Assembly: GCA_963771355.1 (NCBI GenBank)
Contig: CAVYTA010000005.1
Coordinates: 1 to 64,000 of the forward strand
Length of the DNA stretch: 64,000 nucleotides
Reading direction: 5' to 3'
From: an uncultured Candidatus Rokubacteria bacterium
Lineage (GTDB): Bacteria; Methylomirabilota; Methylomirabilia; Rokubacteriales; CSP1-6
A program made the translations under genes and the position numbers. Position 1 is the first letter of the stretch. Each line of letters opens with the position of its first letter. Below, in pieces: positions 21,157 through 32,586 of this stretch. A model generated the notes under the pieces. It searched no databases, had not been told where the DNA came from, and saw only the letters and a list, made by a program, of their open reading frames with translations.

Positions 21157-21615
21157 ATGCGGCGGGCCGCCCGCAAACGTACGACACGCCAGTTGGAGCA
21201 GGTGTTCAAAGCTCTCCAGGGCGATCACACTCACCCGTTCGCCCATGAGATCTACCAGCGGGTTCACAAAAAGCTGCCTCGGATCAGTCTCGCCACCGTT
21301 TATCGCAACCTTCACAGTCTCGTCGACGAGGGTAAGATCCGCACCCTCCTTCTGGACGCACAGGGAGCCCGATTCGATCCCGAGACCAGCCAGCACGATC
21401 ATTTCGTCTGCGAGCGATGCGGTCGAGTGGTCGACCTGTTCCTGCGCAAAGCTCGACCGGTCGATCTGAGTTCCCTCGCGAAGCAAGGCTACGTCGTCTT
21501 GACGCACACCTTGACGGTCCATGGGATGTGTCAGGTCTGTGCCGCTCGACGGACCTCGAGGTCCCAGCGCCCGGCGCGAAGGCTTCGCAAAGACCGATGT
21601 GCACGACGGCAGTAG
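21157..21615 (+). CDS. Fur family (PerR/FurA-like) transcriptional regulator
   Basis: 'ISLATVYRNL', 'HDHFVCERCG', 'GMCQVC'; lies upstream of katG. Confidence 0.92.
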   Translation: MRRAARKRTTRQLEQVFKALQGDHTHPFAHEIYQRVHKKLPRISLATVYRNLHSLVDEGKIRTLLLDAQGARFDPETSQHDHFVCERCGRVVDLFLRKARPVDLSSLAKQGYVVLTHTLTVHGMCQVCAARRTSRSQRPARRLRKDRCARRQ

Positions 21616-21642
21616 GGGTGTCTCACAACTAAAGGAGTCGCT

Positions 21643-21975
21643 GTGGCCGATGCCAACGTGGTGCGGCTCGAGCTTGGTCGCATCGGCTTAGGATCTTCGA
21701 CGCCAAAGGCGGTCCCCGCCCGGGCGAAAGGACGGTGTGAGATGGTGCCTGATCCGACTCCGCCCTACCGTGTGCCCGATTTCTGCCCTGACTGCCGCGA
21801 GAAGTTTCTCGCTGTGGTGGGCTGGATAGCCCCGGCGCTGGAGTCGACCCTCTCGCCGGCCCCGCCTGAGCCCATCACCACCCCCGAGGACACGCTGCGC
21901 AAGGCGGGCATCAGCAGCGAGCGCCAGGCGGCGTATCAGCGGCGGATGTCGAGCCTGCTGGCGGGGAGGGGGTGA
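21643..21975 (+). CDS. Small hypothetical protein with CPDC motif
   Basis: RBS AAGGAG before GTG 21643 (alternative ATG 21742); same strand, between the regulator and katG. Confidence 0.55.
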   Translation: MADANVVRLELGRIGLGSSTPKAVPARAKGRCEMVPDPTPPYRVPDFCPDCREKFLAVVGWIAPALESTLSPAPPEPITTPEDTLRKAGISSERQAAYQRRMSSLLAGRG

Positions 21976-22015
21976 AGGCCTGACGGCGCCAGGCTCCCGC
22001 CCGAAGAGCAAGTGA

Positions 22016-24262
<2,247 letters not shown>

Positions 24263-24468
24263 TCTCAGGGACTAAGCCGTAGCAGTCATTGTGCCGACCA
24301 GCCTCGACGTGGCATCGGGTCATTCCCGACCACGTCGAGGTTGACCGAACGCTACCGAGCCGCATGGTCGGCCACCTGGCCAAGGCCGACCCGGCCTGCG
24401 CCGGGGGCGTGAAGAAGCGAACACCACGCTCGACATGGGTGCCGGTATTTCCATGCCGTCCGGTTGCG

Positions 24469-25312
24469 TCAGCGAAGGAACCGGAGCGCGTTGTCGTGGA
24501 AGATCTTGCGGCGCACGACGTCGTCGAGCCCGCGCTCCCAGGCCCAGCGGCGTTCCTCGTCGTAGTCGTAGGGAATCAGCGGGAAGTCCGAGCCGAAGAG
24601 CACCCGGTCCTGGTGCCGGACGAGGTCCGCATCGGACACGGCGCCGGGATCCGCCCCCGTGTACGGCGTGGCGTGCGGACGTCATGGCCATCGTGGTGTC
24701 GACGTAGAGGTGAGGGTACGCCGGCAGCAGCGCCAGGAACTCCGCACTCTGGAACGCGCCCATGTGGGCGACGCAGACGCGCAGTCGCGGGAAGCGCGCC
24801 ATCAGCCGCGCGAACCGCTCGAACCCCGTGAAGGGATCGCGATACGGCATGGTGCCCACGTGGAGCACGAACACGTGGCCCGCCTCCTCCGCCCGCTCGT
24901 ACACGCCGAACAGCCGCTCGTCGTCGACGTGGAAGCGCTGCACCGAATGGTGGAACTTGAAGCCACGCAGCCCGAGGTCACCGGTGGCCTCGCGCGCGAT
25001 GTCGTCGAGGTCGGGGTCGTCGGGGTGCAGCGTGCCGAGCGCGATCGCCTCCGGGAGCCGGGCCGCCTGCGCGGACAACCACTGATTCAGCGCTCGCGAC
25101 ATGCCGGGCTTGTGGGCATAGGAGAAGAAGCAGAAGCGACGCACCCCGCGGGCTCGTAGCGTATCGGCCACCGCCGACGGCTCGAACGAGTGCCCGGCCG
25201 GCCAGCCGTGATTGGTGAACCAGCGCTCGATCGCCCGGGCGAGCCCCTCGGGGTGAAGGTGGACGTGGACGTCGACGCTGGGGAACGCCGTCAGGGGGAG
25301 CCGGGCTTCCAC
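24469..25312 (-). CDS. Amidohydrolase_2 family protein (one frameshift near 24675)
   Basis: 'VDVHVH', 'GFKFH', 'AHMG'; the C-terminus 'DRVLFGSDFP...KIFHDNALRFLR*' lies in another frame. Confidence 0.85.
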
Positions 25313-26877
25313 TACGGCGTCTCCCCGGCCCGGCCCTTGGTGGCGAACTGCCGCTCGTACAGCGCGCGAAGCTCCTCGAGCGTGGTCGCCTGGCCCGGGC
25401 CCTTGTCCTCACGGATGTGCGCGATGCGGGCGAAGCGCAGCGCCATCCCCGAGGGATAGGTCGGACTGCGCTGGATCTCGTTGTACTCGACTTCGACGAC
25501 GACCTCCGGCTGCACCCGCACGGTGTAGCCGTCGTCGGCGAGGGAGAGGGCGCGCAGGCGTTCGGTCATCACACCGAACTCCGCGTCGGTGAGGCCCTTG
25601 AAGGTCTTGCCGACGTCCGCGAAGGTCTCTCCGTCGCGCACGGCCAGATGATAGTTGGACAGCCAGCCCCGCCGCCGCCCCGAGCCGCGGTCGGCGGCGA
25701 CTATCACGCAGTCGATGGTCTCCGGGGTCTTGAGCTTGAACCAGCGCTTGCCGCGCCCGCCCGGCTCGTACGGCGAGCGCGGGTCCTTGGCCATCACCCC
25801 TTCGTGGCCCGCGGCAAGCGCGCGGGCATGAAACGTCCGGGCCGACTCGGCGTCGTCGATCAGCACACGCTCGGCCAGGTAGCGGCCGCCGGTCACGCGG
25901 GCCAGCGCCTCCCAGCGTTCGGCCTGGGACGCGTCGATGAGCGAGCGGCCGTCGGCGTGCAGGCAATCGAAGAAGTGCAGGGCGAGCGGCATCTCGCGGG
26001 CCAGGGCTTCCACGCCGTGGACCCGGCGGAAGCGCCGCATCAGCTCCTGGAAGGGCAGCGGCCGGCCCTCCGCGTCCAGCGCCACGACCTCGCCGTCGAG
26101 GATGAAGGGCGCCCCCCGCAGCCCGCGAGCGACGGCCGCCACGTCCGGCAGGCTCCGGGTGACGTCGGAGAGACGGCGCGTCCAGATGCCCACCCGGTCA
26201 CCCTCGCGATGCACCTGCACGCGGGCGCCGTCGTACTTGAACTCCAGGGCGGTGCGACCGCCGTGGGCGCGCAGCACGTCCTCGAAGTCGGTCGCCAGCT
26301 CGGCCAGCATCGGCAGCAGCGGGACGAACGGCCGCGGCGCCACGCCGGCGAGGGCCGCCGCCCCGCCCGCCCGCGCCAGCGCCGCGACCGCAGCCAGGTC
26401 GCCGAGGAACAGCGCGGCCCGGCGGACGGCGGTCAGGTCGGCGGCGGCGGCTACCCCGATGGCCTCGAGCACGAGACCGTCGGAGACGCCGGTGCGCAGC
26501 TCACCCCCGAGAATTCGATTCAGGAACTCGCGCTCCTCCTCGCCGGCACGCGCCGACAGCTCCGCCAGGCGCGCCTGCCGCGCTCCGCGCGAGCCACTGC
26601 CCGTTGCCTCGGCTACCGCCGCGAACGCGGCGCTCACGTCGCCGAGAGTGAGCGGCGGGCCCCCGCGCGCCGGGAGGCCGCGCGGCAGGCCGCGCACGCC
26701 GAGCACACGGGGATCTGAAGTGGGGAACGGATGGCCGGTGAGAAACGCCACCGCCGACGGGAGCTCGCTCGTGTCGACGGCCTGGAGGAAGTCGGCCACG
26801 AGCCGCCGCTTGTCGAGGCGCCCCGGCGTGGCCTCGAGCCGCCGGCCGAGGCGGGCGAAATCGGCGAAGAGCGTCAC
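25312..26877 (-). CDS. ATP-dependent DNA ligase (DBD-adenylation-OB, LigB/archaeal type)
   Basis: 'EFKYDGARVQVH', 'ILDGEVV', 'HEGVMAK', 'WFKLK', 'ALRFARI..IREDK'. Confidence 0.95.
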   Translation of the reverse strand: MTLFADFARLGRRLEATPGRLDKRRLVADFLQAVDTSELPSAVAFLTGHPFPTSDPRVLGVRGLPRGLPARGGPPLTLGDVSAAFAAVAEATGSGSRGARQARLAELSARAGEEEREFLNRILGGELRTGVSDGLVLEAIGVAAAADLTAVRRAALFLGDLAAVAALARAGGAAALAGVAPRPFVPLLPMLAELATDFEDVLRAHGGRTALEFKYDGARVQVHREGDRVGIWTRRLSDVTRSLPDVAAVARGLRGAPFILDGEVVALDAEGRPLPFQELMRRFRRVHGVEALAREMPLALHFFDCLHADGRSLIDASQAERWEALARVTGGRYLAERVLIDDAESARTFHARALAAGHEGVMAKDPRSPYEPGGRGKRWFKLKTPETIDCVIVAADRGSGRRRGWLSNYHLAVRDGETFADVGKTFKGLTDAEFGVMTERLRALSLADDGYTVRVQPEVVVEVEYNEIQRSPTYPSGMALRFARIAHIREDKGPGQATTLEELRALYERQFATKGRAGETP

Positions 26878-27016
26878 GCCCCCATTCTACGGGGTCGAAA
26901 AGCCCCGATCCCGGCGCATTCCTACCCGCCCCATCGGCTTGACAAGGCTCGAGCCGGGGTGTGCATTTAAGCGTGTCGGCGGTCGTACATAGGATCGACA
27001 CCGACCGGAGGTCACT

Positions 27017-27344
27017 ATGGCAGCCACTGTAGAGCGCATCGACGTCGGAACCGCACGGAAGAACGTGTCGAGTGGACAGGCGCTCCTCGTCTGCGCCTAC
27101 GAGGACGATGCGAAGTGCCGGAAAGGGTCGCCTGGAGGGCTCGATCCCCTTGGCCCGTTTCGAGACAATGGCGGCGACCCTCCCCAAGACCCAGGAGATC
27201 ATCTTCTACTGCGCTTGACCCGCCGAGGCGTCGGCTGCCGGGCAGGCAGCACGGTACATCGGGCGAGGATTCGAGAACGCCAAGGCGCTCCGCGGTGGGG
27301 TCCAGGCATGGGTCCAGGCCGGCCTTCCGGCGAAGGATGAGTGA
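27017..27344 (+). CDS. Rhodanese-like protein with in-frame TGA (YCA-U-P), probable selenoprotein; 1-nt indel near 27123
   Basis: Joined frames read MAATVERIDV...LLVCAYEDDAKCRK/GRLEGSIPL...QEIIFYCA*PAEASAAGQAARYIGRGFENAKALRGGVQAWVQAGLP; TGA at 27216-27218. Confidence 0.8.
27221..27265 (+). promoter_or_regulatory. Putative bacterial SECIS element (rhodanese gene)
   Basis: Stem GCTGCC (27234-39) / GGCAGC (27245-50), loop GGGCA; lower pairing CGCCGA with TC(G)GGCG. Confidence 0.65.
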
Positions 27345-27505
27345 GCGAGCGAGGCGCGATCTCAGCGCTTAGCCCTTCGCGCGTGACCAGGAGCATCCTG
27401 TTCTCCGTCGTGAGCACAAAAATTCCTTGACACGCTGGTCGCCCGGGCTGTACCTGAGGCGGAACGGGTCACGGCCAATTGACCGGCGAGACAGCTCCTG
27501 ACACG

Positions 27506-28078
27506 ATGGCCAGCGCCTCCGCACGGAGGCGAACGCCCCCTCGCGGCTACTTGGCCATCATCCGCACGATCGACAAGTTTACCGAGATCACCAGCTACGT
27601 GTTCGTGGTCGTGATCATTCCCCTGATCCTGGCCAATGTCGTCGAGGTCTTCGCCCGCTACGTGCTGCGGTCGCCGACCGTCTGGGCCCTCGACGTGACC
27701 ACGATGTCCTACGCGGCCCTCTTCATGCTGGGGGCGGCACTGGCCCTTCTCAAGGGCGCGCACGTCCGGACCGACATGCTATGGGAGCGGTTCTCGGACC
27801 GAAAGAAGGGGATGATCGACAGCGTGGCCCTGCTGATCTTCTTCCTGCCGACCATGGCCGTGCTGTTTTCCATCTCCATCGACGATTTCCTCTACTCGAT
27901 CTCGATCGACGAGCGGTCCAGCTCCGGCGCCTGGACGCCGATCTTGTGGCCGCTGCGCGGCGTGATCCCGCTGACCGCGTTCATGCTGTTCGTCCAGGGC
28001 ATCTCCGAGCTCATGAAGAGCCTCTGGGCCTGGCGAACCGGGGAGTTCCTGACCGTGCACGAGAAGATCGAGATCTGA
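27506..28078 (+). CDS. dctQ: TRAP transporter small permease
   Basis: 'EVFARYV', 'GAHVRTD', four TM segments. Confidence 0.9.
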   Translation: MASASARRRTPPRGYLAIIRTIDKFTEITSYVFVVVIIPLILANVVEVFARYVLRSPTVWALDVTTMSYAALFMLGAALALLKGAHVRTDMLWERFSDRKKGMIDSVALLIFFLPTMAVLFSISIDDFLYSISIDERSSSGAWTPILWPLRGVIPLTAFMLFVQGISELMKSLWAWRTGEFLTVHEKIEI

Positions 28079-28082
28079 GGGC

Positions 28083-29622
28083 ATGAGCGTCAACGAGGCG
28101 CTCGGATTTCTCATGCTCCTCAGCATGGTCGCGGTCATCTTCATCGGCTTCCCGATCTCCTTCACGCTGCTGTTCCTCGCCCTGGTGTTCGGCGGATTGG
28201 GATTGGGGTGGAACCAGACCTTCAATCTCGCCTATCTGCAGATCTGGGGCACGATGAAGGACGAGATCTTCCCCGCGGTGCCGCTCTTCATCTTCATGGG
28301 CTTCATGACCGAGCAGGCCGGGCTCATGGAGCGGCTGTTCGGGGCGATGAGGAGCCTGCTCGCCTCGGTGCGCGGCTCGCTCTATCTGGCGGTCATCCTG
28401 ACCGCCACCATCTTCGCCATGGCCACCGGCATCGTCGGCGCGGCGGTGACGGTGCTCGGCATCATGGCCGCCCCGATGATGCTCAAGTCCGGCTACGACG
28501 CGCGCTTGTCGGCCGGCGCGATCGCCGCCGGCGGCACGCTCGGCATCCTGATTCCGCCCAGCATCATGCTGGTGGTGATGGGCCCGGTCATGGGCGTGCC
28601 CGTCAACATGCTGTACTCGGCGGCCTTCGGCCCCGGCTTCTTGCTCGCCTCCTGCTACATCGGCTACACGCTCCTGCGCAGCTTCATCAACCCGAAGCTG
28701 GGGCCGGCCATGACCATGGAGGAGCGCCGGGCCGCCTACGACGACATGACGACGGAGAAGGTCCGCTTTCCCGTGGTCGGTGCTGGGTCTCGTCTGCATG
28801 GTCGCGATGACCTATCTCGGCGCCGACGTCGTCTTGAGTCGGCTGGACGTTCCGCCGCTCACCGTCAGCGTCGGCCCGGTCGTCGGTGTCGGGCGTCGCG
28901 CTGTTGCCCGCGCTGGCCACCGCGGTCCCCTACTTCCGGAACCGCTACTTCCGGGCGCGTGGTGCTGGGCGTCGCGCCGCTGAGCGCGCTCATCGGGTTC
29001 ACGCTCGGCACCATCATCGGCGGGCTGGCGACGCCGACCGAGGCGGCCTCGTGCGGAGCGTTCGGCGCCACCCTGCTGGCTTTGATCTATGGCCGGCTGG
29101 ACTTCAAGTCGGCCAAGAACGCGGCGATGGGCACGATGGTCACCGTCGCCATGGTCCTGTTCTTGGCGGTGGCGTCCAACGTGTTCGGCGTCCGTCTTCA
29201 CGAAGCTGGGCTCGGCCAACCTGATCACGGATTCGCTCCTCGCCCTCCCGGTGGGCGACTGGTGGAAGCTCGCGCTCATCATGGCCATCTTCTTCATCCT
29301 GGGATGGCCGTTCGAATGGCCGGTGATCATCCTCGTCTTTCTGCCGATCGTCCTGCCGGTGATCGAGAAGTTCCAGCTCGGCCTCAACAAGCTCGATTTG
29401 CTGATCTGGGTCGGCACCGTGATCGCGGTCAACATGCAGACGGCGTACTTGAGTCCGCCGGTGGCGATGTCCGCCTACTATCTGCGCAACGTGGTGCCGC
29501 AATGGAGCCTGTCCACCATCTACCGGGGCATGGCCGACTACATGGTGATCCAGGTCTTCGTCCTCATCGTGCTGCTGCTCTTCCCGAAGATCGCCCTGTG
29601 GCTGCCGCACTTCGTGCGGTAG
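28083..29622 (+). CDS. dctM: TRAP transporter large permease (several indels at 28.78-29.19 kb)
   Basis: 'AVPLFIFMG', 'GGTLGILIPPS', 'ATPTEAA', 'QTAYLSPP' spread over frames. Confidence 0.88.
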
Positions 29623-32031: not shown

Positions 32032-32586
32032 ATGCTCGAGGGGAAAACCCGCATTCCGCCGGTCGACGTCGAGACGCTTCCGGACGACCTGCGGGAGGTG
32101 CTCGAGGAACAGCGCAAGCTTCGGGGGGCGCCGCTCTATCCCTACCTCTTCTATGCGCGCAACCCGGCGTACTTCCGCGCCGCGCAGGCGATGTGGACCG
32201 CCCTCCAACAAGAGACGAAGCGCGTGCCCGGTACGCTCAGGGCGCTGCTCAACCGTCGCGTCGCCTGGTGGAACGGCTGCGAGTTCTGACAGGACGCCAA
32301 TGCTGCCGTGGGCAGCAGGCTCGGCGTCTCGACGGAGAAGCTCGAGGCGCTCAACGACTACGCGAAGAGCCCGCTCTTTACCGATGCGGAGAAGGTGGCG
32401 CTCGAATACGCCGACGCGATCACGGACACGCGCCGCGACGTGGACGACGAGCTGTTCGCGCGCGTGCACCGGCACTACGACGACGACACCATCGCGGAGC
32501 TGACGATGATCATCGCGTGGGAGAACGCATCCTCGCGCTTCAACCGGGCGTTCCGCATCCCCTCGCAAGGGTTCTGGAAGCGATGA
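32032..32586 (+). CDS. AhpD/CMD-like alkylhydroperoxidase with CxxU motif, probable selenoprotein (184 aa)
   Basis: RBS GGAGGT then ATG 32032. ORFs 31936-32289 and 32308-32586 share a frame and are separated only by TGA 32287-89 in 'NGCEF*QDAN'. Confidence 0.88.
32293..32328 (+). promoter_or_regulatory. Putative bacterial SECIS element (AhpD-like gene)
   Basis: Upper stem TGCTGCC / GGCAGCA with loop GTG, starting 11 nt after the TGA; lower stem GACGCC / GGCGTC. Confidence 0.75.

Follow-up and report, generated by a model that had tools for sequence, protein, structure and literature searches.

A predicted C-x-U rhodanese selenoprotein gene in a Candidatus Rokubacteria genome, masked by an in-frame TGA and one surplus base

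Introduction

Rhodanese selenoproteins with a CxU active-site motif are listed in the available parts of two reviews (PMC9312934 and PMC13188914), and the kind is already catalogued, being modelled as NF041203. A UxU rhodanese from an Olavius symbiont was described in 2007 (PMC1976440, as far as its accessible text goes), and the literature search for a UxU selenocysteine rhodanese gave only this paper. According to the available part of PMC10135228, Cx4R/T and DxR are the motifs of active sulfurtransferases, while Cx5R is that of phosphatases and arsenate reductases. Selenoproteins are expected in the lineage studied here, as a Methylomirabilota metagenome-assembled genome (MAG) with 63 predicted selenoproteins is noted in the accessible text of the 2026 review, one of the two reviews cited above.

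The gene described in this work is located in a window, i.e., the whole analysed stretch of DNA, of 64,000 nucleotides from an uncultured Candidatus Rokubacteria bacterium, and all positions given below refer to it. It resembles the catalogued kind in its loop, C-A-U-P-A-E, and differs from it in other conserved features.

Gene layout

The predicted single-domain rhodanese-fold selenoprotein gene occupies positions 27017-27344 of the plus strand and consists of 108 codons and one surplus base. A Shine-Dalgarno-like GGAGG (27007-27011, plus strand) is located 5 nt upstream of the ATG at 27017, and purine stretches of the GGAG/GAGG type also precede the start in the orthologues. The N-terminal rhodanese half is read in frame 1 from this ATG to ...DAKCRK. 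Frame 2, shifted by one base, continues with GRLEGSI...IIFYCA, the TGA at 27216-27218, PAEASAAGQA...ALRGGVQAW and the stop codon TGA at 27342-27344; the 3' piece scored 29.1 bits with the Pfam Rhodanese model PF00581 (cut-off 22.2). The preliminary description had proposed that the deletion of one base gives a complete single-domain rhodanese with the TGA inside the active-site loop and the signature ALRGGVQAW beyond it; both halves and their frames were confirmed, and the TGA and the signature are present where it had placed them.

Three residues of the product are of particular importance, all on the plus strand: Cys26 (27092-27094), part of the LLVCAY signature of the subfamily, at the strand end where rhodaneses normally have DxR; Cys65 (27210-27212), the first residue of the active-site loop, which aligns with the canonical catalytic position of rhodaneses; and the in-frame TGA (27216-27218), also TGA in homologues, which corresponds to the predicted Sec67 of the C-x-U motif.

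A scan of 26850-27520 for sigma-70 promoters and terminators found none, and a search of 26800-27600 against Rfam gave no match at E <= 1. Contigs of the RNA runs X15 and X17 span the rhodanese gene, although contigs from RNA libraries do not demonstrate transcription. Just 5' of the ribosome-binding site, at 26997-27000, public contigs vary by small indels; as these run in both directions, they partly reflect strain variation.

The surplus base

The surplus base, a probable assembly insertion, lies within 27119-27128 (plus strand). Contigs from four public DNA runs (X1, X2, X3 and X6, from four studies, none known to be the source sample) were aligned on 26900-27450, and in all four the depth of sequence without one base equalled the total depth at the site (49.8/49.8, 17.2/17.2, 14.9/14.9 and 6.46/6.46, respectively). 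The gap was placed at 27121, 27122 or 27128, the least diverged contigs pointing to 27128 and more distant alleles aligning it at 27121 or 27122. The same one-base gap was found in two of four further runs, X7 and the RNA run X17; the spanning pieces from X11 and X15 carry four and three gaps, and the gap at this site is not among the rows listed for them.

The orthologue search suggested in the preliminary description gave a consistent picture. Among 60 relatives searched, 15 close orthologues (104-112 aa) were examined; each has a single intact frame, with TGA in 14 and TGC in one at the selenocysteine column, and the nearest one reads uninterrupted through the broken spot. Programmed frameshifting was therefore ruled out. 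Likewise, the database protein P0125 contains both pieces of the window gene in one frame, with 65 of 66 residues identical (35/36 and 30/30). The preliminary description had ascribed the extra base to a homopolymer; this part is probably wrong, because the closest alleles place it at T27128, after GGG, where homopolymer length is unaffected.

The dctM gene, 1.4-1.9 kb further 3', contains four one-base insertions (28778, 28881, 28958/9 and 29190/1) which are absent from the X7 and X11 contigs, and it is split over several frames in comparison with an intact copy from the same genus. None of the extra bases, at the rhodanese site or in dctM, lengthens a homopolymer. Taken together, these comparisons indicate that the indel is most likely an assembly artefact and that the gene is most likely intact in the living cell.

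The in-frame TGA

The conservation of the TGA was assessed in a species-genome scan, from which the best 80 of 194 relatives were used; these loci overlap the 15 orthologues, so the two sets are not independent. TGA occupies this column in all 80 loci. The C-terminal rhodanese signature follows it in 79 of them, with the 41 downstream codons conserved as protein. The preliminary description had made its reading depend on Cys or Sec occupying this column in homologues, and cysteine was indeed found there in one of the 15 close orthologues and in 26 of 120 full-length protein hits. These 120 hits comprised 26 C-x-C, 10 C-x-S, 60 C-x-W and 17 W-x-W forms and seven other or unparsed ones; the tryptophans at the loop columns presumably arise from gene callers reading TGA as Trp.

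The codon of Cys65 is also TGA in 31 of the 80 loci, mostly assigned to Acidobacteria by record title, which gives a U-x-U motif. In these forms (L090, L097, L107, L152 and 27 other loci, and also L205), two UGAs three bases apart stand 5' of one hairpin, whose loop lies 27 and 21 nt from them. They come from Acidobacteria, Desulfobacterales, Nitrospirota and one family of the window's own phylum, and their scatter on the tree suggests repeated switches between Cys and Sec.

The genome carries the machinery for selenocysteine insertion: selA, selB and the tRNA-Sec gene are clustered on contig C7 and selD is on C4, all four above curated cut-offs, and ARAGORN reported a tRNA-SeC(tca) on C7. The SelD of this genome has Cys at the usual site. 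Among 50 tested genomes with TGA-form loci, 45 had selA above the cut-off (these being MAGs whose completeness is not given). In a sample of the phylum, matches to the gene were found in 39 of 201 genomes, with TGA in 40 of the 41 matches.

With regard to the criteria for selenocysteine recoding, the gene has a conserved UGA with protein beyond it, Cys homologues, a hairpin that agrees with the SECIS model, and a genome with selA, selB, selC and selD. On these grounds UGA-67 is very likely read as selenocysteine, with SelB presumably binding the hairpin and Sec-tRNA decoding the UGA. The central proposal of the preliminary description, a CxU rhodanese selenoprotein doubly masked by a TGA and an indel, is thus upheld by intact orthologues, by Cys at this column elsewhere and by the presence of the Sec machinery.

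The SECIS-type hairpin

The hairpin GCTGCC-GGGCA-GGCAGC, which the preliminary description had located 15 nt 3' of the TGA, is present at 27234-27250 (plus strand). It has a 6-bp stem and a 5-nt loop, GGGCA, which starts with GG and lies 21 nt after the UGA, and it agrees with all four bacterial SECIS constraints published in the model of PMC13188914 (section 5, as available). The folding energy of 27228-27256 is -14.4 kcal/mol. Taken by itself, this stability does not exceed what chance would give (z = -0.9 to -1.95 in four folding windows), and 165 of the 793 plus-strand TGAs of the window are followed by a hairpin of at least 6 bp that fits the same crude model; stability was therefore dropped as standalone evidence.

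The support for the hairpin comes instead from its being conserved and covarying. Across the 15 sequences, 97.8% of the cells are paired, compared with 22-53% for slid controls, and ten double-sided changes were found, although the relatedness of the sequences inflates this shuffle test. Of 75 distinct sequences, 51 have the pair TA at columns 27:39, 12 have CG, seven TG and four GC, and one is unpaired there. The third positions of the two alanine codons concerned occur mainly as GCT/GCA (48), GCC/GCG (7) and GCT/GCG (7), against 84 GCT among 803 background Ala codons. The glycine codon of the loop is GGT in 64 of 68 sequences, compared with 102 of 501 in the background. In the one Cys orthologue with DNA, a single case, the stem has decayed at this position. 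The hairpin covaries at synonymous sites and fits the bacterial SECIS model.

Predicted fold and conserved motifs

The AlphaFold model of the closest intact orthologue has a mean pLDDT of 83.9. Its best structural match is the E. coli protein GlpE (Z 15.9, rmsd 2.5, 104 residues aligned, 18% identity); the structure matches listed are rhodanese-fold entries, and the ESM Atlas gave generic rhodanese clusters only. A GlpE-like fold is predicted, in which the active-site loop opens with Cys65-Ala-Sec67. Since the clade starts directly at the rhodanese domain, the protein is probably cytoplasmic.

None of the 80 genomic loci lacks Cys26 of the LLVCAY signature, 117 of the 120 protein hits have it, and it is kept in all ten C-x-S forms. 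The DxR motif was found in none of the 80 loci. In the HMMER alignment, the Asp of DxR comes one residue after Cys26, so the equivalence of the two is approximate. In Cdc25, this region contains a "backdoor" cysteine, whose register with Cys26 is uncertain. The R/T position of the Cx4R/T loop is occupied by Glu in 78 and by Asp in two of the 80 loci. Neither is a Cx5R loop present: the window reads C-A-U-P-A-E-A, and no Arg stands at that column of the 15-sequence alignment. The Ser found at the Sec position in 10 of 120 protein hits indicates that some homologues can do without the second chalcogen.

Distribution and genomic neighbourhood

The subfamily occurs in Rokubacteria, Acidobacteria, Desulfobacterota, Nitrospirota and NC10, the closest named homologues among the best 80 of 194 relatives being Ca. 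Rokubacteria MAGs. Its distribution within the phylum is patchy, as the 39 of 201 genomes mentioned above indicate. We clustered 3666 flanking ORFs from the 80 loci and the window, and no cluster was wider than eight loci; the window's own neighbours cluster with those of a single other locus at most. When 138 nearest-neighbour ORFs at 72 of the 80 loci (eight near-duplicates omitted) were scanned with Pfam, no recurring functional theme emerged. As the neighbours are not conserved, gene context gives no pathway, and the attempt to derive one from it was dropped.

Several other features of the window are described here in their own right. A PerR/Fur-like regulator followed by the catalase-peroxidase gene katG (over cut-off) lies at 21157-24262 (plus strand), 3-6 kb 5' of the rhodanese gene, with no conserved linkage. 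An amidohydrolase-like ORF at 24320-25312 (minus strand), without an NCBIfam hit, drifts in its C-terminal part to non-protein-like sequence, which is probably another assembly frameshift. The frame-broken dctM, encoding a TRAP large permease, is located at 28083-29622 (plus strand), with dctQ before it and dctP after it on the opposite strand.

An AhpD/CMD-like gene at 32032-32586 (plus strand), 5 kb 3' of the rhodanese gene, reads C-E-F-U at the TGA of 32287-32289, and a similar GCTGCC...GCAGC hairpin follows this codon. With the TGA translated as U, it scored 244.6 bits on NF053654 "YciW-related (seleno)protein", for which the cut-off is 310. This gene is likely a second selenoprotein gene.

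Proposed function

In the literature searched, no biochemical study of any CxU rhodanese was found. Judged from its sequence features, the protein may well be a cytoplasmic redox protein that handles reactive (sulfane) sulfur or persulfides, a reading we hold with moderate confidence. It is suggested because both loop positions convert to Sec and because the classical anion-binding residues have been lost; the loop has an acidic residue in place of Cx4R/T and no Cx5R. The general link of selenocysteine with redox-active cysteine, described in the available part of PMC1794560, is a further basis for a redox role. In such a mechanism, a persulfide or polysulfide would donate a sulfane sulfur to Cys65, and Sec67 would attack the Cys65-bound sulfur, so that sulfide is released or the sulfur is passed on and a Cys-Sec selenenylsulfide is left. 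Thioredoxin or a small thiol would then re-reduce the selenenylsulfide, with Cys26 possibly acting as the resolving cysteine.

A broader proposal, which we regard as tentative, is that of an uncatalogued, widespread cytoplasmic subfamily in which DxR was traded for a third redox cysteine. Cys26, Cys65 and Sec67 would form a relay, the U-x-U members would have an intramolecular diselenide, and the selenium-dependent persulfide reductase chemistry would be new to the rhodanese fold.

The persulfide-redox role has two functional rivals. Somewhat doubtful, in our opinion, is an ordinary GlpE/PspE-like sulfurtransferase or selenium carrier, in which Cys65 would carry a persulfide or perselenide, formed from thiosulfate or from selenite-derived selenium, to an acceptor such as SelD, and Sec67 would only tune reactivity. 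Perselenide delivery by rhodaneses is an idea present in the literature. The rank of GlpE as the best structural match (Z 15.9), the Cys kept at the catalytic position and the retention of Cys26 and Cys65 in the C-x-S homologues are in line with this reading; however, Cx4R/T is absent, with an acidic residue there in all 80 loci, DxR is lost, and the nearest neighbours at 72 of the 80 loci show no linkage to sel or sulfur-metabolism genes.

Unlikely, and ranked below the carrier, is a role in thiol redox or metal(loid) binding without any link to sulfane sulfur, in which Cys26, Cys65 and Sec67 would constitute a peroxide-sensing, disulfide-exchange or metal/metalloid site on a rhodanese scaffold. 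Three conserved chalcogen residues would suit such a site, as would scattered oxidative-stress neighbours: a peroxidase adjoins L140, MsrAB and rubrerythrin flank L128, and the window has its PerR-like gene and katG ~3-6 kb upstream. Such neighbours were found at just two of the 72 loci examined, however, and the Cx5R loop of arsenate reductases and phosphatases is missing.

Status of the window copy and of its TGA

It is quite improbable that the family is real and that the copy in this strain is a recent pseudogene with a true one-base insertion. The gene is dispensable, being present in 39 of 201 phylum genomes, and the surplus base stands outside any homopolymer. Moreover, a same-genus genome has a second copy (L082) that diverges after the hairpin. 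Further decay, which the preliminary description had named as a mark against an intact gene, was nevertheless absent: the two pieces match an intact database protein in 65 of 66 residues, and the SECIS is intact. The four similar insertions within 2.1 kb downstream are, moreover, all missing from near-identical contigs. An assembly artefact is hence the preferred explanation of the indel. As for L082 itself, it follows the family to just inside the hairpin and then continues as unrelated sequence similar to the regulatory domain of an adenylate cyclase, which may be a truncation, a fusion or a misassembly.

That the TGA is a true stop, with the annotated 66-residue peptide as the product, can practically be dismissed: the best 120 of 427 database hits to the N-terminal 66 residues do all end exactly at this codon (120/120), but in 79 of 80 loci the 41 codons downstream show protein-level conservation, TAA or TAG occupies the column in none of the 80 whereas the terminal stop varies between TGA, TAG and TAA, the Cys homologues are full length, and the hairpin covaries.

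Implications for annotation

The same 120 hits show how the family is represented in the database: they are stubs of 64-66 residues that stop exactly before the TGA and are labelled "hypothetical" or "ArsR regulator", two of them bearing the name "ArsR family transcriptional regulator". As 120 of the 120 best hits are truncated at the TGA and some are misnamed, the selenoproteomes of soil bacteria are undercounted. The main value of this analysis is therefore the correction of annotation, the protein itself being a modest variant, a sister subfamily of a predicted selenoprotein kind. The CxU rhodanese kind has been predicted for about two decades, and a specialist would be little surprised. 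The natural CxU, UxU, CxC and CxS forms of one soluble protein of 105 residues also offer a handy panel for determining what Sec adds to a rhodanese.

Comparison with known families

The E. coli thiosulfate sulfurtransferase GlpE (PDB 1gmx) has the same predicted fold and length, and its active-site loop likewise begins with Cys. It differs in that the present protein lacks DxR and Cx4R/T, has Sec two residues past the catalytic Cys and contains an extra invariant Cys. Within the PDB, the single-domain protein closest in sequence (E 1e-7) is Bacillus halodurans BH2092 (3nhv/3o3w), which likewise has one rhodanese domain with the longer active-site loop; unlike the window protein, with which it shares ~20% identity, it has no Sec and keeps DVR.

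DedA-rhodaneses and other fused CxU/CxC domains share the loop C-x-U-P-x-E-A-T/S-S-A with an in-frame TGA, but in these proteins the rhodanese is part of a fusion with a membrane domain or another domain and retains a DxR-type motif, and the tree places them outside this clade. One such gene is present in the same genome (C6:238200-238538, L053), encoding a DedA-type membrane protein with a rhodanese that reads C-T-U-P-N-E; the part tested scored 94.3 bits on NF041203. Rhodanese domains with C-S-TGA-P-G-E were observed at the N-terminus of fusions in L042, L043, L045 and L046. Their partner presumably represents a nucleotide-cyclase domain, judging by the motifs DIAGST...GDG, and Sec-bearing, redox-regulated cyclases in these relatives are possible. 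In L044, L047 and L049, TGA occupies the canonical catalytic position and is followed by A-C-P-H-H, which gives a U-x-C motif; this is not among the five rhodanese forms in the table of the 2026 review, in the part available.

Identity of this clade with the family of the 2007 UxU report was rejected as far as it could be tested: the U-x-U gene in the Olavius Delta 1 genome is a member of NF041203, and the single copy of this clade in that genome is of the C-x-U form. The literature search for LVCAY found no relevant paper. The string is absent from four deep-Sep supplements and from one BSepDB supplement, the latter being uninformative as it lacks the word "rhodanese" too. BSepDB form 3 may already include members of this clade.

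The best NCBIfam match is NF041203, rhodanese_LYCAU (form 3), which has the same single rhodanese domain with the C-x-U-P-x-E loop at the same place; U-x-U variants occur in NF041203 and in this clade alike. However, all seven intact orthologues tested scored 51.4-67.9 bits, below the NF041203 cut-off of 115, whereas true members scored 177 and 120.6. The published representative of NF041203 carries DVR and is extended at its N-terminus by a long hydrophobic stretch (PMC12013277, available part), while this clade has LLVCAY and no extension. For a tree with 54 rows, we combined 26 of the 80 loci and 12 protein hits with 16 other rhodanese domains, both NF041203 members among them; five further candidate loci were dropped as they had no motif match. 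The 38 LLVCAY rows form one side of a branch with 100/100 support and a length of 1.2, opposite the 16 other domains; the root is a midpoint root, and the bootstrap had not fully converged. The clade therefore looks like an uncatalogued sister branch of the known CxU selenoprotein kind, lying outside NF041203.
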